A DNA stretch of 61,864 nucleotides, filler included, from Circinaria calcarea (lineage: Eukaryota): assembly GCA_051942165.1 (NCBI GenBank). It is 8 parts of 8 records of this genome, joined end to end, with 100 filler letters (N's around TTAATTAATTAA, not from the genome) between each part and the next. Parts side by side here need not be neighbours in the genome. Positions count along the whole stretch, not along the records: positions 38,766 to 46,400 come from JAVECS010001278.1; 7 more parts are not named here. One strand, written 5' to 3'. The position numbers were made by a program, and so were the translations under genes. Shown piece after piece: positions 37,756 through 51,045 of the stretch; position 1 is the first letter of the stretch; the number at the start of each line of letters is the position of its first letter. Below the pieces are notes generated by a model. The model was not told the DNA's origin. It saw nothing but the letters and a program-made list of their open reading frames with translations, and did no database searches.

Positions 37756-40700
37756 CGCCACGTAGGTTTGATGGTTTTAGGACTCTTGGGAATTTCGTGT
37801 TATAGGCCTAGATGCGGAAGCTGCAGATCGTGTGTATAGGACAGGGAAAGCGTAAAGTGTGTTGGAAGAAACTCGGTTCAAGATCGCCGCTGACTTTAGA
37901 TAGAGAATGTATGACTGCGACTCCCTCCACAAAAGCATAGTGAATACCTCATATTCCGCTCACATGAATCATAATATTCAATCTCAGCCATGACCACATA
38001 ACAGGATTAAGTACGGAATAACTTATCTCTTTGCCGCCACCCCCTTGTTTCCAGCGTCGGCATAACTTAGCATCATCCCATATCTATGATATAGGTACTT
38101 ATACGGTAGCAAAGCATGGTATTTCTCTCCTTGTCGGGGAACACCAAGTAGGCAGAGCCTATGTCCATATCGGAAGCACCTTCGTCACCAGCTTCGCGTC
38201 AACACCTGATGCACAGAATGACAGATAGATACAGCGAACTATGCGTTAGTGGTAGTTTGGGAAGACTTCCCGGTAGGGTCAAGAGGGAAGAGAGCTCGGA
38301 AATGGATATTTATGCAAAGAGCAACGATCCGGAGCGGCCAAAGAAGGTAGATACGAACAATGCAGGCGTCCACGCCCGCAGCGATTGTTTGAAGACCGAT
38401 GTCAAGATTGAGGGAAAAGATGGGCCTTCTTTAGCAGAGCAGCCTAGCTTTACCGAGGTGAAGCATACCGAACCACGACAGGATGGCCATAATATCACGA
38501 CAACCAAAGATTTAAAAGTTCCTCGACCAGCACCCACCAACACCTACCAGTGCGGTGATCCCGAATGCAAGCAGTATTGGTTCGGCCAGAAACGCCGCGT
38601 GAACGAGGCTATATCCGCCATACATAGATACCTCAAGAACGCCGGGGATGTTGATCGCAAAGAGGNNNNNNNNNNNNNNNNNNNNNNNNNNNNNNNNNNN
38701 NNNNNNNNNTTAATTAATTAANNNNNNNNNNNNNNNNNNNNNNNNNNNNNNNNNNNNNNNNNNNNTACCTCTTCCGTTCCCCCCTTTTCCCCCTTTTCTA
38801 TCCCAGGTCTTATAACTCCCTCCTTCTCCATGACTTTTGCACCTGGAAAAGCAACTTTTTCGCCTAACTTTCGCCAGGTCAACATCAAATCGTGTTTGTT
38901 TTCTATCGATTAATTACGTTATAGCATATACCACCGCTGACGGTTATTTTCGTTTGAGACTTCTTGGAAAGAACCCGAGGGCACTTGTGAGCGGGGAAGC
39001 TCGTGACGGAGGCGAGAAGAGGTCTCATTGCTTGGGGGAGGATGATGATAGGCTGTGGCAAAACGGCTCGGTGGAGACTGATGGCGGTGGCGGTGGCGGT
39101 GGCGGTGAGTGTCACGGGAGGTGCCCGCATCTGATCATGGGGCATAGAATTGATGAATTCCTAATCTATGCCCCGAAGGCAGGCTTTAAGGCCCAAAGGC
39201 CTTGGTTAGCCCAGCTGACCTGCTCCTTCCTTCGCATAACAGTGAGCCAGGCTCCGCTGGTCTCAAATGAAGGTATCAGAAGGGAGGGCTTTGCCGGTTG
39301 ACGATGATGGTTGTATACAGATCATGGCTCCATGTTTCACTCAAGTTCGACAAGGAGGTATCATCGTTTGATATTTGGCTTGTTTCCTCCAAATCCCCAT
39401 CGATTTTTCGCAAGGAAGACATTCCGAAAACCTGGGGCATCTCAGAGATTTCGTCTTCATTTGGATCTCCCAAGGTCTATAATCTCCGCTGTGTCTGTTT
39501 TCCTTTCGCTTCGAATACTTTTGTCGTATAAGATGACTTGGTTTCTCGTCGGAGTTTTTTCATCAGCGGCCTGGATCAATATCTGGGGGTCTATGCCGGT
39601 TGTGTTTCAATGACCCAGACGGTATCCAATTGCTTGGCATCGCAAGCACGTTACCGGCATTATTAAGGCTCCAGTCGGCAAAGGCCCTCGTCAATGGGAG
39701 GGTTGATAGGATGAAGGCTTCATCAACAGTAAGACTTGCGTACCTCTCCTGAAATACGCCACCTATCCCCATTTTCTCCAGAAATCGCCGGGGCTTCGAA
39801 GCTTCGGCGACACCATCCTCGAGTCTCGTTATGCCTGCTATGATATCTTCTGCACGGTGCTTTTCGTACGTGTTATTGGAATCGAACTAGAACAATTAAG
39901 ACGTTCAAGGCGGCATATTGCGTCAATAATGCCGATAACCCCGAGAGGTCCGGTGTAAATCCGTGCGCTTGAGAAAGAAAACAATGGCTATCTGACGTCC
40001 ATGTACGGAGGCAACCAGCCAGTCGAGTCTGCGGGGGAGAGATGGTAGTCCAGAGAGATTGGACGTGAGTACGTTCGTGTTGGATGATACAGCCACTAGG
40101 ATAATTGGATCTTGCTTTTCGGGCTGTCGACAGCTGCTATATTCGTGCATATAGACATGACGGCGCCTCCAGTAGAATTCGTCCAGCGTATAGCAACGAG
40201 CTTTATCTTGGTCGAAATCCCAATTCGCCGGATGACCGTTATATAACGGACAATACGGATAATATCTCGAATTTCCTCTTCTTCTATAAATTGATCCATG
40301 GAGATTAACGCTTTTATATATCCGGAGTGTGCCAGTGCTGAATCGAGGATATAAAGAAGACGATGGGGATAAAGGTGTAATCGTGGACAATATCAGCAGC
40401 CTAGTAAAAAGGTGGGATGGTACTACTCATGTATGCGGAAAATTCTGAAGATGGGTACATTGAGAGTTTCGACTAACGAGAAAACCATCGGTATGATATA
40501 TCGAACCAGTTAAGAATCCTAGGTGGCAAGAGCGATTGCGGTGAGTGTATAAACCGCGGAGGGTCGCCAGCGGTGTAATATGGAGGCAGATGGGAAACCT
40601 AAGCCACGCTAGGGTAGGTACAAGTGAAAAGAGATTATATAAATTATATGATAGCAACTTTTGCCATATAGTATCAGCAACTACCCCCCTACCAAGAACA

Positions 40701-41145: not shown

Positions 41146-42624
41146 TCAGGTCGTCTTGGTTTCAGCCCAATCCACCCATCTCCGCACAACTTGGTCTACA
41201 TTCCTCACCCCTTTCCTACTTGCTTCAACCTCAAACCACTCTCGATGCTCTTTCCCACACCCCACGCAATCTCTTTTCACTCGCTTTTCCGCCAGCTCGA
41301 TGTGAATAAGACGCTCTACCCTGTGCGCGTACGGGACTTTCCTGGGATTGGGCGATGAGGTGGAAGGGGTAAAGGGAGATGCAGGGGCCAAACTTGGGGA
41401 AGAAGGAAAGTAAGGATAATAGCGGACTAGAGTGAGATTGTGGTTGCATTGTCGTGTCCACTCGTTCATACGACGCTGAACGTTTGATGCGCGGCCGATT
41501 TTGAGGAGGATGGTGGCTTTTCCGGAAGAGTTCTGACTCGGAATACTCGTGCTTGCTGGATAGTCCTGTTTCAGTTCACTCGTTCTTCGAACTCTGGGAT
41601 TGGACTTTGTAGACGGCAGCAAGAGAGATGATGCGAGATCTGGCTCTGGAGCTGCGGATGTATCCGGTGTGAGCCAGAATATATAGATCCAGCCGCCGTC
41701 TTGATCGAATGGCGAGGTGGGTTTTGCCAGTTCTGCAAGAAGCAATGATGTCGTTTGTGGGGATAGCGATTTAGGGATCAATGCAAGCAGGGACTGGGTT
41801 TGGGTTGAGAGATCTCGGGCGAGAGCAGGCCGGTGGGAATGGATGGTAGGGTTAAGGGTTGATAGAGGTTGCCGATGATTGATGTCATTTGAAGAATCCG
41901 CTTTCTTGGAGGCTGCAGCTCGAGGAGATACGGCTGATTGTAGTCCCATTGGAGGCGTAGACATAGAATGGTGCGATAGTCGAGTATTTTCAGCAACACT
42001 GGGCTGCCTAGGTGATTCATCGTAGTGTCGAATGCGAGGTGCTTGCGTATACTCTGGATCCGTGGATCGGACACAGCAGAAGATGGATAGCACGAAACTC
42101 AAATCCCCTCTAGGCTTTCGTCGGTACTGAGAGCTTGGAGGTAAACGATTTTCCGGTACTGACATCAACGGCCCCGAGATGTCCTGCCATTGCGGAGGTA
42201 ACGTCTCCTTCTTCACTGGCTTCCTTCTGTGTTTGGAGTTTCCTTGCTTCGACGTCTTATCATTATCTTCAACATTCAAGACGCCGAGGCGATCAACGAG
42301 CGTATCTATACTGGATCTTTCCTTTAGGCCGAGAACTCTGCCTCCTTTGTCTTTGGCTTCTCCATTGGCAAGAGGTCCAGCTTGTTCTTTGTGTTGCCAG
42401 CAGAAGAAGGCCGCTGCCGCCTCATGATCATCACTGGTATCAGGTAGTATGGCAATCACGCCGTATTTCGTACCCGGCGATGCAGTTGGTGAGTTACCAT
42501 TGGATGCAGCTAGAGATCTCCGACATGGCCGGCCACTTGACGTGATGCCCTTACATGTCGTTGATGGGTTTTTGGAGTCTGACCGAGGCAGAAGAGACTC
42601 GGGAGTATGAGGAATGAAAGGCAT
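41146..42624 (-). CDS. T5orf172 / MUG113 (DUF1766)-type GIY-YIG-like domain protein
   Basis: N-terminal CKGITSSGRPCRR..FCWQH; GWIYIF, LKIGRASNVQRRMNEWTRQC and HRVERLIHIEL..CxxCGKEHREWF. Confidence 0.85.
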   Translation of the reverse strand: MPFIPHTPESLLPRSDSKNPSTTCKGITSSGRPCRRSLAASNGNSPTASPGTKYGVIAILPDTSDDHEAAAAFFCWQHKEQAGPLANGEAKDKGGRVLGLKERSSIDTLVDRLGVLNVEDNDKTSKQGNSKHRRKPVKKETLPPQWQDISGPLMSVPENRLPPSSQYRRKPRGDLSFVLSIFCCVRSTDPEYTQAPRIRHYDESPRQPSVAENTRLSHHSMSTPPMGLQSAVSPRAAASKKADSSNDINHRQPLSTLNPTIHSHRPALARDLSTQTQSLLALIPKSLSPQTTSLLLAELAKPTSPFDQDGGWIYIFWLTPDTSAAPEPDLASSLLLPSTKSNPRVRRTSELKQDYPASTSIPSQNSSGKATILLKIGRASNVQRRMNEWTRQCNHNLTLVRYYPYFPSSPSLAPASPFTPSTSSPNPRKVPYAHRVERLIHIELAEKRVKRDCVGCGKEHREWFEVEASRKGVRNVDQVVRRWVDWAETKTT

Positions 42625-43419: not shown

Positions 43420-45129
43420 TCACGAACCGGTCTTCTTGCCATCACAGAACTGTATCACATCCCATTTTCCACTCCATTCCCACTTCCGAGCCCCGCTATC
43501 TTCCCCTCCATCTTCTGTGGCTTTTAGTCTCTCGTCCTCACCTTCGGGAAGACCTACCACAACGTCGGCTTTGCACGTTCGGAGGGCCAATGTACGAACG
43601 CCAGAGTCAAGGCCCATCGGGCCAATGGCTGCGGTAAATGGGGTAGTAGGGTCCCACATGACCTATACGGCATCAGCTGTTGATATCGACAATGGTAAAC
43701 GATTTTACGCACGTCGCCAGTCAGTTTTCGATAATTCAAATCACCCTTGAAGATGACAAGTTCGCTCTCTTTCAAATCGTCAAAGAGTCTCGGCTCGGTT
43801 CTGGGTAACCGCCAATAGCTGCCGGCTTGGGTCCAGAAACGGTTGGGGCGGATGGTAAGCTGACCTTCTTGATGAAAACTACTCCACCGCTCAAAGAGGA
43901 AGGATAGTTCTTCGGCTTCCTTTGAGGATAGTGGTTGTGGGGTCTTACCAGCGTGCCTATCATCGTCTGAAGCACCGGTGTAGAAAGCTTGTGGGTCGGC
44001 AAGCGCATTGAACAGGGAAGCGAAGTCGCCTGGGAGGACGTCTGAAACGAACCATGGTATCGATTTCGGGTGGAGGACAACGTGAGTGGCGAGATTAGCC
44101 GATAGTAGGTAACCGGCCAGGATGAGGTCTACAAAGAGCTCAAAGCCGGCATTATCCAGTATAATGTCTACCCGTCGATCCTCCTTCCGCTCAGTTTTCT
44201 GCGCATTCTTGAGGGCTAAATATGCAGCGGGGAGGTCGTTGGCGATGATATTCTTCTCGGCAGCCTTTCTAGCGTCGGATCCTTGAAGTTTTTGAATATC
44301 TTCGTAGGTAAGAGATGTCAGGAGAGATAGATCCGTGGCATTACCCCAGAGGCAGATTTCACACATTTCCGTGAAAACGATACGTTCTGCTTGTTCCAAT
44401 TCCTCTGCGCTCTTGTTGATTGTAGTGCCGCTTCCCAGCTGGGATACAAGCTCCTTGTATTTGGCAGCTAGTTCTAGAACAGCTGGGCGGGAGGATTTGA
44501 AGGTCGACATCTTCTGTCTAGCGAATACATCATAACTATTCCAGTGTTTGGAGAGGGTAAAGGAGGTGCTCATGCGTCTGGCTTCTGTGAATTAGCTTGA
44601 TCTCACATTGTGGTTCCCCCAGGGTATACCGATAGAGATAGCATTCTGCATAGAGCCAGGGCACATTAAACCAAGTTGGCGATCCTAGAGCTTCGAGCTC
44701 CGTATTATAGCTCGCAACGTCAGGTTGCCCATCATCCGTCAATGATCTGTTGAAGTTAGTATATTGAGGTAAAGCATCGAGCTTGGGACTCACGTCAATT
44801 GGCGATCGTGCTGTAATTCATATTTGAGCTTCGCCAACACTTCGACAATGGCCTTGCCCTCGTTCCGCTTTTCTTCTTCGTTGCATGCCACAACAGCGCG
44901 ATGGACGTCATCAATGGCTCCGGTCTAAACTTGTTATGAGAACTGAAGTTACACCGTACATGGCTGGTCTGCCTCACCAGTATGACTGGCCATCGATCTC
45001 GTGCGGAGATGTAGGCAAAGGATGTTTGGTCGCCAGTCCTATACGGAGCTAGGTATTCCGGTCAATTGAAATCGTTCTATCGGGTAACACGCCTGGGCCA
45101 TACTCACGAACTTGTGGGTCCATCTCCAT
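43420..45129 (-). CDS. DUF89 / ARMT1-like damage-control phosphatase, multi-exon
   Basis: WFNVPWLYAECYLYR, CLWGNATDLSLL, LDNAGFELFVD, PWFVSDV, FKGDLNYRKL and LRTCKADVVVGL. Confidence 0.92.
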
Positions 45130-45286
45130 AGCTGGGGCTGGGAAAAGGGACAATTGGAGGCTTGGAGAAGTCCTTGATGGGGCGCTCAGTACACTATGGC
45201 AGTCCGATGTTTCCCCGTTTATTCGCACAAATCGAAAAAAGGCTTGATAAAAATATTCCCCAAAAAATTGCCAAAAGAAAAGCCCG

Positions 45287-45292
45287 AAAAAA
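45287..45292 (-). terminator. RNA polymerase III oligo-dT terminator (T6)
   Basis: TTTTTT on the minus strand one base after tRNA A73, with further T-runs downstream. Confidence 0.8.
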
Positions 45293-45293
45293 T

Positions 45294-45542
45294 TGGAGAT
45301 GCGGGGAATCGAACCCTTGGACTATTAGTGACTGATTCTGATGTAACAATGCACATTAACTTACCCGGACCCCATCCAAACATGCTCCTGAAAGAGGATT
45401 ATGCTACTATGCGGGGTATTAGCCTACGGCTCTTAGAATAAATTACCAATTTTACACACAGGATGTATTATACTAGGCTATGATTAGCGTAATGAATAAT
45501 ACAAAGATTGATTCAAAGTCTTACCCACTAAACCACATCCCC
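45294..45542 (-). tRNA. tRNA-Ala(AGC) split by three spliceosomal-type introns and one canonical tRNA intron
   Basis: Exons 45542-45525, 45472-45460, 45406-45402, 45378-45365 and 45315-45294 join to GGGGATGTGGTTTAGTGGTATAATACATCCTTAGCATGGATGGGGTCCGGGGTTCGATTCCCCGCATCTCCA (72 nt). Acceptor stem has G3:U70, anticodon stem CATCC/GGATG with anticodon AGC, T stem CGGGG/CCCCG. Confidence 0.93.
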
Positions 45543-47160
45543 AAGTAATGAGACTTATAATCTTATTTAAATGTATATTCATATTTAACTCAGTCAGATC
45601 GCCTCACCTCAAAATAAACACAAGCTAGCAAAAACACATCCTATTAATTTTATTCATTTTCCAAATTCCTCTTGATTCTAACCACTTTACTCCAATGAAC
45701 AGATCCCCATCCCCATCCAATCCGACCAACCCCGAAAAAACGTGGACGTTAATTCCATCCATCCTACCTGATTCTAATCTAATTATCCAGGTATCATCTC
45801 GGCGGACCCCCCCTCTCTCCGCTCGCCTAATATCCAGCACCTGCACAACCATTCAACTTTTAAACAAATCCCCGAAGTTACATTACAAAAAATGGGCTCT
45901 CGCGACCTTTTAGATTCTGCCCCGGGGGTTCATCCAGGAGTCCGGAAAACGGGCTGACTGACGGCAAAAACGAAGCTTTTTGTTTCAAATACAATTTTTC
46001 GTTACAAGGGTTGCAGATTTGGCGATTCAAGGTGTTTTGGGGGAGAATTATCAAACTATGACTACGACTACGAAAATAGAGATACCTCGAACTTCTCTCC
46101 AAATTTAGGAAGATAATTTTTTGGTGCTTCAAAATCTTAGATAACCGTATGCATTTATGACACTTTGGGCCCCTAGCGTACGCACACCCAAGCCGGAAGA
46201 AGCTTCCACTTTCGCTCAAAAAAACCCCGTGCAACTTCCCGCTACCGACCAAGCAACCCAGGTAGGCACCACCATCACAAACACCCTCCCCTTGGTCTAT
46301 CCTTCCTCGCCGTAATCCCCCATTCCTCAACGCTTCTCCCCTTCCCAGCTCATCCACTCGCCTGCGTACTCGCCACCACTCTCCCTCTCCTCCCTTCCTC
46401 NNNNNNNNNNNNNNNNNNNNNNNNNNNNNNNNNNNNNNNNNNNNTTAATTAATTAANNNNNNNNNNNNNNNNNNNNNNNNNNNNNNNNNNNNNNNNNNNN
46501 TTTTTTTCTAGGACCTGGATAATTGGGAGAATAAGCGGGTGAAGCGGTTAAAGGGGGAGCATGATGGGATACTCTGATGGGACCTCTTTCCGGGGGGGCA
46601 AAAGGGGATTGCGGGGCCTGTGGAGAATGACTACGGGCGAAAGCGAACAAGTACCGACAATGTGTGAGGATGAGGGAGAGGGAGAGGGGGAAATGATGAA
46701 GAGGACTTGGGGCTTGGGATAAGAGTGGCTACCCGGGGGCGATAGGAAAGGATTGGTCCAGTGACCGCGTCTAAGGGGAGGAAGGGGGGGATATTTGCTA
46801 CTTGCAAGGCGACATTGGTTGCTTTCTGCGGCTTATCACGAATGGGGTTGATTCCACAAGGGGGACTATGGGAGCTACCAGTGATGGGCAGTGGAGGAAG
46901 AAGAAGCGTATTTCGAGAAGACCATTCCTCGAATACCACAATAACCCATCGACGCTTCCACCACCCAAGTTCTGCTGACAAATAGTGTACACGGTTTAAA
47001 ATATATGCGCAAAATAACAATTGTCAACCAATCTGTGCTTCCACATGTTTCCGGTCCAGCGCCTTGCTCGAGAAACTCAATAAAACCCCTGTCCGAACGC
47101 TATACCTATCTGGGGAATTCCCACACAAGAACCATTACCGCCCCCTGCTCTTCGACCAGA

Positions 47161-50100
47161 TCAGTAAGCCCTCCCGTTTCTCGTCCTGCCGATGGTCTGG
47201 AAAGTCTGGTGCCCAAATGCAAGTGTATCAAACCGATCGATTCCCGCAGCGTTCACGTCTCCAGAAAACCCGGAGAGGTAGAAACCAAACACCACCACCA
47301 GATAAGTAAGCACGAGAATACTCCCCTTGAAGTAGTTGCTCTAGCATTCTTTGTATCAGTGTCTGAGTCTGGAGATGGAAAACAGATATGATTAGCTTAC
47401 CTTTCCTTCACCGTACATGTAACTGAGCAGAAATACGCAAAGAATGACAGTAACCTGTACATGTTAGCAAAGAGTTGACAAAAGTTGTAGCACTGGCCAT
47501 ACCATATCCCACTGAGGGAAGATCAGGCTGTTGAATTATTAGCTCCTTTCAGTAACACAGACTCTGGAGGCCTCACTTGAATGTATGATTCGAAAGGTCC
47601 TCAGCATTGACGTAAAGACCATAGACGGCGCTGAACAGCACTAGAGCAGGAATCTGAAGCAAGCAGACCTGCAAAGCATAGGCAGATCCAATCTCCATTG
47701 ATAGTGCAATGTTTCCGTTCATAGCGAAGGATATGGCGTTCTTTGTGTGACATCAGTATGAATCAACGAAGCAGACTTCCTTCTGACTCACCAAGAATTC
47801 AGTAGTATTCGGTACAAGAGCGAATAAAGTGATTCCCAGAAACTTCTCGTCGATGTCAACACTCTCCAGGACCACATCTACCGTATTGACCAGGATCTCT
47901 GCAATAATCGCGTACAGCACTGTAGCACCAAGCAGTATCACAGCGCTCTTAAGCCGGCTCCAGTTCGGTGCATCATGCCCTCCACCTTCCCCGTGAATTG
48001 TAACCTCCCCAGCAACCAAATCATCGTTTTCCTCATGCACTGTTCCTGCTCTAGATGGAGCTTTGTGATGAGGGTGATGGGGGTGATGAGCGATGGCTTG
48101 CGCAGATGCCTGAGTTTTTCTCGGTGCTCGGGTGGCATCCCGAGCTGCCACAGTGGCCGCTGTCGCTGCCATTTCTGCCACTTGGCGAACCAAATAATTG
48201 TTCTGTTCTTCAGAAAGAAAATCAATCTGCAGAGTTTTCACACTTGCATTATCGTTTGTAGTACCCTCGCCTCCGCTGCTCTTTGGTGGTACAATGTACG
48301 GTGAGACATGTTGAGGTTGTGGTTGGTGTATGTCACTGACAACCGAGACGTGTCGTGAATCTCCTGGGTTCGATGGCGCTAGTCCTACTTGTCTGAGTGA
48401 CTGCCCAAGGATCCGCTTATATAATTGCGTATCTCTGATAGAGGTATCTCTCATAGGATTACGACCCATAGAACCAGCGCTAACGTTATGATGCTTGTAA
48501 CCGGTAGGATGAGGTACATGAGGAAGATATGATATGCTGCCATTCGGTCCTGAGGCAGGCTGAGGTTTCTTCTCTTCAACTTCAGTGTTCCAAATCACTG
48601 CTGCATGCGTCCGGAGTGTGAACCAGAGACCGACCACATATGACAAGAATAGCATGACAGCAGCAAACCAACAGTACGGTCGGACAGCTTGAATGAAAAA
48701 TCGATCATAGAGGGCAGGCACTTGAGAGAAGTAACAGCGTCGGCAGGTCCTATCAGAGGGGTCCTCTGCTGTGCAAGCATGGCAGTAGAGCTCATGCTAA
48801 ATCCGTTAGTATAGTTGAGACTCCAAAGGTACACCAGCCTACTTACACTACCATATATTTGATAGAACAGGGTAGGCCCGAAAGCAGCGATCATGGCGAA
48901 GAGCAGCATCGTCGATGTCACACCTGCAGACTTTACATTGAACCTCTGCGTCTTGCGTTTGATAGCACCGAAGCACATGGAAAGACCTGGTAGGAAGAGG
49001 ATACCGGCAAATATGCTTCCTATGATGCTGCCTTCAACCAGTTGGCCCTTGCCTTGATTGAGGGCAACACAGTATAGGAAGACCTCGACTATGGTTGAAA
49101 AGAAAGCATTGATCGCTGCACCTAGCCCCATCGACGACTGCGCGGATATGGAAGCCACAGCTTGACCAATGAAATAGGCCAAGGGAATTATGGAGAAAAG
49201 CGCCAGGGCAAATACGAAACCGGGATGAACAAGCCAGATTTTAAGGCCGAGAGCGACATCGAGGATCCAGTAGTCGAATATGACGAAGAGCACCACTCCG
49301 ATAAGGTTGATGAGAAAGATATTAGTGCCATCTATGGTGTACTTCCAATACTTGAGACCGACGGCACGATAGGTACATAGGAGTATGGAAGACGAAGGAG
49401 ACGAAGGAGAAGAAGGTCCGCGTGAATAAGCAGCATCAGAGTGGAATGTTAGCGCTAGTGGATGTCGGCGGAGGTGGTAGAAGAGAATCAAAGTCACCTT
49501 GCCCATAGGGATCCAAAAGACCATAAACCAGCAGATGGCGGAGACCAGTAGCAGTAGAGGGGCGATAAGAAAGTAGAAGAAGATGAAGAATATGACACGG
49601 CCAAATGTCCATTGACCACGACCAAACAGTCGCCGTTTGCTCCTTGGGCCATCTTCCTCTCTTCTTCCACCAATCCTGGCGTGGCCAAGAAGGCTGTCAT
49701 TCTCACCAGCAGAATCTATACTATCCCTGCGACGTCCTACTAAGGTCCTCATTGTCGATGGACCGAAGAAAAGGCGTCCGTCTTCCAAATCGCCACTTTG
49801 CCACTGTTCGTATTCTGTAATGCTCCGACCTTCGCCTTCGTCTTCCTCTGCATAAGCTTCGTCTTGCTCTAACTTCACAAATTGACCAAACGGATAAAGA
49901 AGATAACCTGCGAGGCCCCAGAGAACATGACCGTATTCTGCGGCTCCAGGTGTGAAACCAAGTATGAGGCATGTACCAGCACCCACTGCCGCCACTATCG
50001 CTAGCCACCATCCGAATAGTAAAGTCCACAGAAGGTTGAAAGCCCACAGCCATCTGCTGACTCTACCGCCTGGTGAGGAATGAATATCGCCATCGGCTGT

Positions 50101-51045
50101 CTTCTCTACGGATCTATTTTTCTTATAGAGTGCAGGCTTCCAGATACGGATACCAAAGGGGTGTGTTTCGTTGATAGCGTCTTGACGATCCTTCAGGGTG
50201 AAGCTCTCAGCATCACTTAGATCATCGTCGTCATCGTCGTCGTTGTCGTCATCGCCATTGTCATCAGGCTGCGCATGGGGATGTATGGTACCTTCTTCAG
50301 ATGTATCTGAAGATTCTGCAGGTTCATTTGATGGATTAGGCGCAGCTTTTGGGGCCGACGCAGCTGCCGCCTCCTCTTCTTCGTCACCTTGTGAATCGAC
50401 GCGCGGAAGATTTGCAGGTTGCAAGGTCTGTCGCCTCCTTAGGGTTGACGCTTGCCTCCGCATTGATGGGCCAAATCCTGATGCTGCCTTGGCTACTGAT
50501 GACCTTCGCCTTGCAAAGTCTGATTCGTACTCTTCAGGATCATCGTCAACCGAAAAATCCTGGCCTTTGTGGGGGCCTTGATATCTCGAAGAACCTCTTC
50601 TAACCAAACTTGGCTTCTTGGCTTTCGCAGTGGGATTTGTAGACTCCGGCGGGAAAACTTGGCGGCGGATGGAGGAACTTGCGCTCTTTAACGTTGGACG
50701 AGCCTGTTCCTGTGTCGATGTCTGCGTTGGAGTGCGTTGTCCTTCATTGGTTGACTCTTGGGCGGTTTCGTAACTTTCACCAGAGTCTGCTTGGAGTCAG
50801 CATGGTTATAGCAGGAACCAAAGGGATTTATGGTCTTAGGGTCTCGCACCGTCGGTGTTGATACTCGTCGATGGAGTTGGAAGGCGGTTTCGCCGTACCG
50901 TCGATTCTGCGCCATGGGGATCCCACCCATCATCTTCCTGTGGTGCTGGTGGCAGACGGATGGATGGTGCTCGAGTATCAGTTGGAGAAATTGGAGTAGA
51001 CTCCGCACGCCTCGAAGGCTTTGACGAGTCCTTGTCAGGCGTCAT
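47161..51045 (-). CDS. VNX1: Vacuolar cation/H+ exchanger of the CAX family, Vnx1-like, multi-exon
   Basis: ETHPFGIRIWKPALYKK, YKYTIDG-like YWKYTIDGTN, alpha repeats GAAINAFFSTIVE / GSIIGSIFAG and FALVPNTTEFL. Ends GRAY* at 47161. Confidence 0.88.

Follow-up and report, generated by a model that had tools for sequence, protein, structure and literature searches.

A split tRNA-Ala gene

Within the window, by which we mean the whole 61,864-nt stretch of DNA that was analyzed, a tRNA-Ala(AGC) gene lies on the minus strand at 45542-45294, split by three inserts with GT-AG ends and by one canonical 23-nt intron. G1 of the tRNA is at position 45542 and the discriminator A73 is at 45294. The locus starts with GGGGATGTGGTTTAGTGG and ends with GGTTCGATTCCCCGCATCTCCA, which correspond to the termini of an alanine tRNA carrying the G3:U70 pair, and approximately 200 extra bases lie between them. 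The 72 coding bases are spread across 249 bp, and the GT-AG introns are placed after nucleotides 19, 32 and 51.

The segments are described here in the order in which they would be transcribed, all on the minus strand. Exon 1 (45525..45542) comprises nt 1-19 (18 nt), with the 5′ half of the acceptor stem, U8, the 5′ half of the D-stem and the D-loop through G18 G19, and it holds the A box. It is followed by GT-AG intron 1 (52 nt, 45473..45524), which lies in the D-loop between nt 19 and 20 and reads GTAAGA...GCTAAT...CCTAG. Removal of this intron gives back the D-loop AGTGGTA, as in the homologues described below. Exon 2 (45460..45472) is a 13-nt micro-exon, nt 20-32, containing the rest of the D-loop, the 3′ half of the D-stem, nt 26, the 5′ half of the anticodon stem and nt 32. 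GT-AG intron 2 (53 nt, 45407..45459), reading GTGTGT...GCTAAT...CATAG, is located in the anticodon loop between nt 32 and 33. Exon 3a (45402..45406), as placed by ARAGORN on the joined exons, carries nt 33-37, i.e. U33, the anticodon AGC and A37. Then comes the canonical tRNA intron of 23 nt at 37/38 (45379..45401; ARAGORN i(38,23)), for which a placement at 45378-45400 leads to the same product, followed by exon 3b (45365..45378; nt 38-51) with the 3′ half of the anticodon stem, the variable loop and the first three nucleotides of the T-stem. GT-AG intron 3 (49 nt, 45316..45364), reading GTAAGT...ACTAAT...CCAAG, interrupts the 5′ strand of the T-stem between nt 51 and 52. Exon 4 (45294..45315; nt 52-73) completes the gene with the rest of the T-arm, the 3′ half of the acceptor stem and the discriminator A73, and it holds the B box.

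In the raw 61.9-kb window no tRNA was found by ARAGORN, nor by Rfam at the gathering score, and a permissive Rfam scan of 45150-45700 (E up to 10) gave four weak, irrelevant matches only. Once the three GT-AG segments are taken out, 95 nt are left, in which ARAGORN recognizes a tRNA-Ala(agc) that has G3:U70 and carries a 23-nt intron at 37/38. The features that characterize a nuclear tRNA-Ala, that is a 72-nt cloverleaf, an alanine anticodon, G3-T70 and the conserved bases U8, A14, G18 G19, U33 and those of the T-loop, are found in the joined exons alone. In the 95-nt intermediate folded by RNAfold the canonical intron is paired with the anticodon, the bases AGCAU pairing with the 3′ part of the intron. 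Since it combines the 37/38 site with pairing between anticodon and intron, the 23-nt insert is the only one of the tRNA-endonuclease type. A preliminary description of this DNA had counted four introns. There are indeed four inserts, but they are not of one kind, being three GT-AG introns and one canonical tRNA intron.

The locus is a genuine fungal tRNA-Ala(AGC) gene of the nucleus, and the fungus is probably an ascomycete. The protein domains encoded in the window (Vts1, MUG113/T5orf172, ARMT1 and Na/Ca-exchanger) are consistent with fungal nuclear DNA, and the atlas clusters nearest to it come mostly from Ascomycota. We also looked for other split tRNA genes by scanning the window for B boxes and A boxes. 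This left 45542-45294 as the only plausible candidate; a site with one mismatch at 39878-39888 is not a tRNA.

Neighboring genes

Downstream of the tRNA, and on the same strand, lies a gene for an ARMT1-like damage-control phosphatase (43420..45129, minus strand, the low-coordinate end being approximate), with a match to Pfam PF01937 on the large exon (E=6.5e-68). Its ATG is 165 nt downstream of A73. The exon model, which rests on reading frames only, gives an open frame of 482 aa with introns of 59, 53, 47, 52 and 50 nt. These introns have GTGAGT-like donors, and CTAAC, CTAAT or CTGAT as branch motifs. In the intron at 44629-44578 it is the distal AG that fits the frame where two or three AGs follow the branch motif, and introns 1 and 3 of the tRNA gene are alike in this respect. 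A 339-aa ORF at 43554-44573 crosses the last of the ARMT1-like introns (43712-43663) by chance. Further along, a 492-aa ORF at 41146-42624 (minus strand) has a C-terminal T5orf172/MUG113 (GIY-YIG-like) domain (E=6.6e-23).

On the upstream side none of five ORFs tested in roughly 2.2 kb had a Pfam match, where about 100 bases read N. Two short runs of N, either masked bases or a gap in the assembly, occur at about 46400-46500 of the window, between the tRNA and a Na/Ca-exchanger-like gene at 47753-50607 (minus strand).

Exactness of the insert borders

The choice of borders was examined by scoring 10,818 combinations of GT/GC-AG segments for the cloverleaf that results from their removal. The top score of 22/23 was reached by just two combinations, the second of which destroys G18 G19. 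The single stem position left unpaired in the cloverleaf of the joined exons is T13-T22, a mismatch common to all the homologues compared. Removal of GT-AG introns alone, with no canonical intron, was also considered; the best score was then 21/23, with loops that are not those of alanine, and an Ala tRNA was never obtained.

Homologues were sought in metagenomes using the 18-nt exon 1 as the query. This yielded 21 loci, seven of which hold tRNA-Ala(AGC) genes, and the 18 nt of exon 1 are identical to the start of all seven. A metagenome scan with AG plus the 22-nt 3′ exon gave no match. Among the homologues, four uninterrupted genes (L006, L009, L014 and L016) are identical to one another, and L011 is a further uninterrupted gene. 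L010 and L015 are fungal tRNA-Ala(AGC) genes with a canonical 37/38 intron only, of 44 nt and 27 nt, respectively. ARAGORN mislabels L015 as tRNA-Val(cac) by misplacing the intron, and its sequence reads Ala(AGC).

Four of the seven homologues were taken into the comparison of identity, with L006 representing the four identical genes. The comparison was made position by position with the joined exons, as MAFFT misplaced the exons when given the gene with its inserts. The joined exons are identical to the four homologues at 65/72, 65/72, 65/72 and 62/72 positions, the junctions are free of insertions and deletions, and the sequence flanking each of them is that of the homologues themselves. The stem differences from L006, L010 and L011 are compensatory, affecting two pairs of the anticodon stem and one of the T-stem, and one further difference from the same three genes lies in the variable loop. 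All 21 stem positions of the joined tRNA behave as in the homologues. The identity to homologues and the compensatory nature of the stem differences therefore indicate that the borders of the GT-AG inserts are exact, and that a foldable product has been kept.

The remaining 14 of the 21 metagenome loci are unrelated to tRNA. In six of them (L002, L004, L005, L012, L017 and L021), around position 440-860 of each, there is a common conserved repeat of >400 nt in which the exon-1 18-mer occurs, followed by CTCAACGG. On the upstream side of the 18-mer the similarity reaches 60 nt, and ARAGORN finds no tRNA in this sequence, which may be a dispersed repeat from another eukaryote. Within the tRNA gene itself, intron 2 contains CCCCGCAT (45413-45420) just past its branch motif, an 8-mer equal to the T-stem/acceptor junction at 45296-45303 (minus strand). 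This match is probably a matter of chance.

The three GT-AG inserts

The three inserts have GTAAGA, GTGTGT and GTAAGT as donors, in each the branch motif CTAAT lies some 10-15 nt ahead of the TAG, TAG or AAG end, and they are 52, 53 and 49 nt in length. Donor, branch motif, 3′ end and length are in each case those of U2-type introns, with a length typical of the mRNA introns of this genome. The inserts look like spliceosomal-type introns, of the same class as the mRNA introns of the neighboring gene in both length and signals. They are dissimilar to one another. Introner-like copies were sought by comparing each insert with the window by blastn-short, and only the insert itself and chance matches of 8-13 nt were found. 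As read from its sequence, this gene keeps every normal tRNA signal yet is split by mRNA-like introns, and it may therefore need the mRNA-splicing machine for its expression.

Pol III-type signals

The A box TGGTTTAGTGG (45535-45525, minus strand) agrees with the consensus at 10 of 11 positions, and is one of three matches to TRGYNNAGTGG in the window. Its fourth base is T where the consensus has C, and T is also found there in the uninterrupted homologues. The B box GGTTCGATTCC (45315-45305, minus strand) agrees at all 11 positions, and is the sole mismatch-free site among six matches in the window with up to one mismatch. The gap between the A and B boxes is 209 bp, compared with 32 bp in the homologues.

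Upstream of the gene there is an AT-rich, TATA-like stretch at −38 to −12 from nt 1 (45554..45580, minus strand), which is a possible TFIIIB/TBP site. TATATA-like motifs are present at about −30 to −47 in three of the four distinct homologues (L010, L011 and L015).

Beyond the gene lies a terminator-like cluster of T-runs (45235..45292, minus strand), comprising T6, T4, T4, T6, T5 and T6. The preliminary description had placed a T6 run after A73, and this is found at 45292-45287, starting 2 nt past the discriminator with one extra A between; the five further runs of T4-T6 lie in the next 55 nt. There are 14 runs of T6 or longer on this strand of the window, and the probability that one starts ≤4 nt from a given site is about 0.0009. 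As many runs of T4 or longer occur in 8 of 6023 windows of 120 nt on this strand. The homologues end similarly, with T8/T9, CT6, GTTCT4 and TTCT5 within 4 nt and often more T-runs.

The sequence layout is that of a type-2 Pol III gene, with intragenic A and B boxes, oligo-T after the gene and no run of T4 or longer within 45542-45294. Since this layout is complete, transcription by Pol III followed by splicing by the spliceosome is a reasonable reading. The two boxes fall on nucleotides that are universally conserved in tRNAs, and would thus have to be intact for tRNA function under any polymerase.

Intron position and sequence in relation to the promoter

It had been proposed in the preliminary description that the position and sequence of the introns were filtered for compatibility with Pol III. 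The observations on which this was based hold. Intron 1 begins right after G19 and leaves the A box whole, the first GT-AG insert starting at 45524 directly after the box. What had been called intron 3 ends right before G52, leaving the B box whole; this is the third GT-AG insert, ending at 45316, and the fourth intron by position. No intron has a sense-strand T-run longer than three despite AT-richness, the longest being 3, 3, 3 and 2 nt with an AT fraction of 0.60-0.69. The T content of the four introns is 30-39% each, and 34% overall.

The wider proposal fares differently: the complete type-2 layout is kept, but there is no statistical sign that Pol III filtered the introns by position or by sequence. 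Runs of T4 or longer occur in none of the five ARMT1-like introns and in 3 of 12 candidate mRNA introns in the window; the candidates are defined by ORF joining only, and as one is shared with the ARMT1-like set this amounts to 3 of 16 distinct introns. When the introns of the tRNA gene were shuffled with their splice-site ends kept, 22% of trials were free of T4 or longer (P=0.22) and 65% were free of T5 or longer. On the same strand 43% of all 249-nt windows have no such T4 run. The absence of T4 runs is what is expected of the short introns of this genome anyway.

Nor can avoidance of the boxes by insertion sites be seen at 45542-45294 alone. There are 71 internal junctions, of which 20 fall inside a box, and three junctions chosen at random would miss both boxes with P=0.37 and would all lie in the spacer between A and B with P=0.10. 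The placement of two of the three introns exactly on box borders has P=0.009, and their placement on both inner borders P=0.0006, as calculated post hoc. If introns were simply excluded from the boxes, no accumulation at the box edges would be expected. The placement at the inner borders may equally be a preference for sequence, as both sites follow GG. The only features that remain unusual are the terminator (P about 0.001) and, as seen post hoc, the position of two introns directly against the inner borders of the boxes. The tRNA itself and its splice signals likewise exceed what chance would give.

Proposed pathway and alternative explanations

We propose that Pol III transcribes the tRNA-Ala gene, and that its GT-AG introns are removed by the spliceosome and its 37/38 intron by the tRNA endonuclease. 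We give this reading a probability of about 0.5. TFIIIC would bind the intact A and B boxes over the stretched 209-bp spacer, and Pol III would initiate shortly upstream of nt 1 and continue as far as the T6 tract. In the nucleus, the three GT-AG introns would next be excised by the spliceosome, which acts in this way on the U6 RNA made by Pol III in fission yeast; this step is predicted from the splice signals. The resulting 95-nt RNA would be an ordinary intron-containing pre-tRNA, to be trimmed by RNase P and RNase Z and spliced by tRNA endonuclease and ligase, as its fold and its recognition by ARAGORN suggest.

Several points count against this pathway. The 13-nt micro-exon, and a first 5′ splice site only 18 nt into the RNA, would probably be awkward for spliceosome assembly. 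As a rule, the action of the spliceosome is coupled to Pol II transcription and to the cap. In the relevant passage of a 2025 preprint (10.1101/2025.06.17.660180) spliceosomal introns are still treated as characteristic of the transcripts of Pol II. The gap of 209 bp between the boxes is far beyond the 30-90 bp of normal tRNA genes as given in the U6 review (PMC5855946); the same account puts the spacing of the A and B blocks of Saccharomyces cerevisiae U6 at about 200 bp, a length known to work there.

We regard as improbable a more far-reaching proposal, in which a Pol III-made precursor of ~260 nt gives a working tRNA-Ala after acting as substrate for the spliceosome three times and then for the tRNA endonuclease, and in which the promoter has shaped where introns persist. 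Inserts would then be found only in the stretch where TFIIIC tolerates extra length, with the outer introns pushed against the inner edges of the boxes.

The RNA might instead be made by Pol II, either at the front of the ARMT1-like mRNA, as a long 5′ leader, or within an unannotated non-coding host RNA. The introns would then be spliced co-transcriptionally and the tRNA cut out by RNase P and RNase Z, with the boxes being simply the conserved bases of the tRNA, and the T-runs a relic or part of the promoter of the neighboring gene. A covering Pol II transcript is conceivable, given that the tRNA lies on the same strand as the ARMT1-like gene and close ahead of its ATG. The integrity of the boxes is needed for a functional tRNA whatever the polymerase, and the statistics of T-runs and of intron position are without sign of Pol III-specific filtering. 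Against this, the T6 run 2 nt past the discriminator and the back-up T-tracts behind it match what is seen in the uninterrupted Pol III-type homologues. Excision of the tRNA from a 5′ leader would be expected to decapitate the mRNA, and there is no Pfam-recognized gene among the five ORFs tested in the roughly 2.2 kb upstream, N bases included. We consider a Pol II origin unlikely. It is similarly doubtful that the gene is a non-functional copy, whether recently disabled or kept for another purpose such as a TFIIIC-bound boundary element, with inserts that are removed inefficiently or never while other, uninterrupted copies serve for alanine decoding. Genes for tRNA-Ala(AGC) are usually present in multiple copies, so a split copy could be dispensable, and the micro-exon and the stretched promoter would probably be handicaps. 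The U6 review (PMC5855946), in the part that deals with intron-bearing U6 paralogues, cautions that these still require experimental validation. Yet the conserved bases are all intact, and the compensatory differences in the stems relative to L006, L010 and L011 are not what a decaying gene would show. Three independent inserts with exact borders, and with splice signals that are complete and differ from one another, would be hard to gather in 72 bp of dead DNA, and they are copies neither of one another nor of anything else in the window.

Removal of the inserts by a mechanism other than the spliceosome is very improbable indeed. The inserts might be self-splicing, or they might be cut out by the tRNA endonuclease at bulge-helix-bulge motifs in the way known from archaea, red algae and nucleomorphs. 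tRNA genes with multiple introns that are spliced by the endonuclease are well known (see PMC3978253 and the preprint bioRxiv 10.64898/2026.10.13.758758). A simple search of our own design for a 4-bp central helix with 3-nt bulges at the junctions found no bulge-helix-bulge for introns 1 and 3, where the best central helices have 3/4 and 2/4 pairs. Intron 2 can form a GU-rich helix with 4/4 pairs, but only 1/3 of the outer pairs. An endonuclease intron has no need of GT, CTAAT and YAG, all of which are present in each of the three inserts. At 49-53 nt they are too short for self-splicing introns, and no Rfam model of a group I or group II intron matched at the gathering score in the window, nor was there one among the four weak matches in 45150-45700.

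Comparison with known systems

Textbooks separate spliceosomal introns, which belong to Pol II transcripts with U6 as the exception, from tRNA introns removed by the endonuclease, and the 2025 preprint cited above again keeps these classes apart. A search of open-access papers and bioRxiv for tRNA genes with spliceosomal introns found none reported, which is not proof that none exists. If our reading is true, the substrates of the spliceosome include a second class of Pol III transcripts, and introns can be gained, by reverse splicing or by a comparable process, in abundant RNAs far from the core of the spliceosome. The failure of ARAGORN and Rfam to detect the gene in raw DNA means that standard tRNA finders miss such genes, so counts of fungal tRNAs may be too low. 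The locus also raises the question of whether an internal Pol III promoter constrains the position and T content of introns, which one gene cannot answer.

The canonical tRNA introns of eukaryotes provide the comparison for one of the four inserts. The 23-nt insert is like them in its 37/38 position, shared with L010 and L015, and in its pairing with the anticodon; the other three inserts are unlike them. Several introns per tRNA gene, in the D-loop, the anticodon loop and the T-arm, are also described for Archaea, the red alga Cyanidioschyzon and nucleomorphs in the relevant account (PMC3978253). The introns there have bulge-helix-bulge structures and are removed by the tRNA endonuclease, whereas those described here have spliceosomal signals, and introns 1 and 3 have no such fold.

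Spliceosomal introns have been reported in the U1, U2 and U5 snRNA genes of Rhodotorula hasegawae and in ascomycete rDNA (Takahashi 1993, 1996; Bhattacharya 2000, as summarized in PMC5855946). These resemble the present case in being GT-AG introns within genes for abundant, structured fungal non-coding RNAs, including rDNA that is not transcribed by Pol II. They are found in other classes of RNA made by other polymerases, and as summarized there none is a tRNA.

Of the known cases, the mRNA-type introns of fungal U6 genes come closest. Removal by the spliceosome was shown for the intron in the sole U6 gene of Schizosaccharomyces pombe (Tani and Ohshima 1989, as cited in PMC5855946), and a survey found up to four introns in one fungal U6 gene, unrelated in sequence to one another (Canzler et al. 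2016, as cited in the same review). As there described, fungal U6 is like the tRNA gene in being a Pol III-type gene with internal A and B elements that is interrupted by short introns with a canonical 5′ splice site, branch site and 3′ splice site. As tRNA is not a component of the spliceosome, reverse splicing at the catalytic center does not explain the insertion here. The present gene differs from U6 as described in that review in that the host RNA is a tRNA, that its splicing by the spliceosome is predicted, and that a second and unrelated splicing system, the tRNA endonuclease, must act on the transcript as well.
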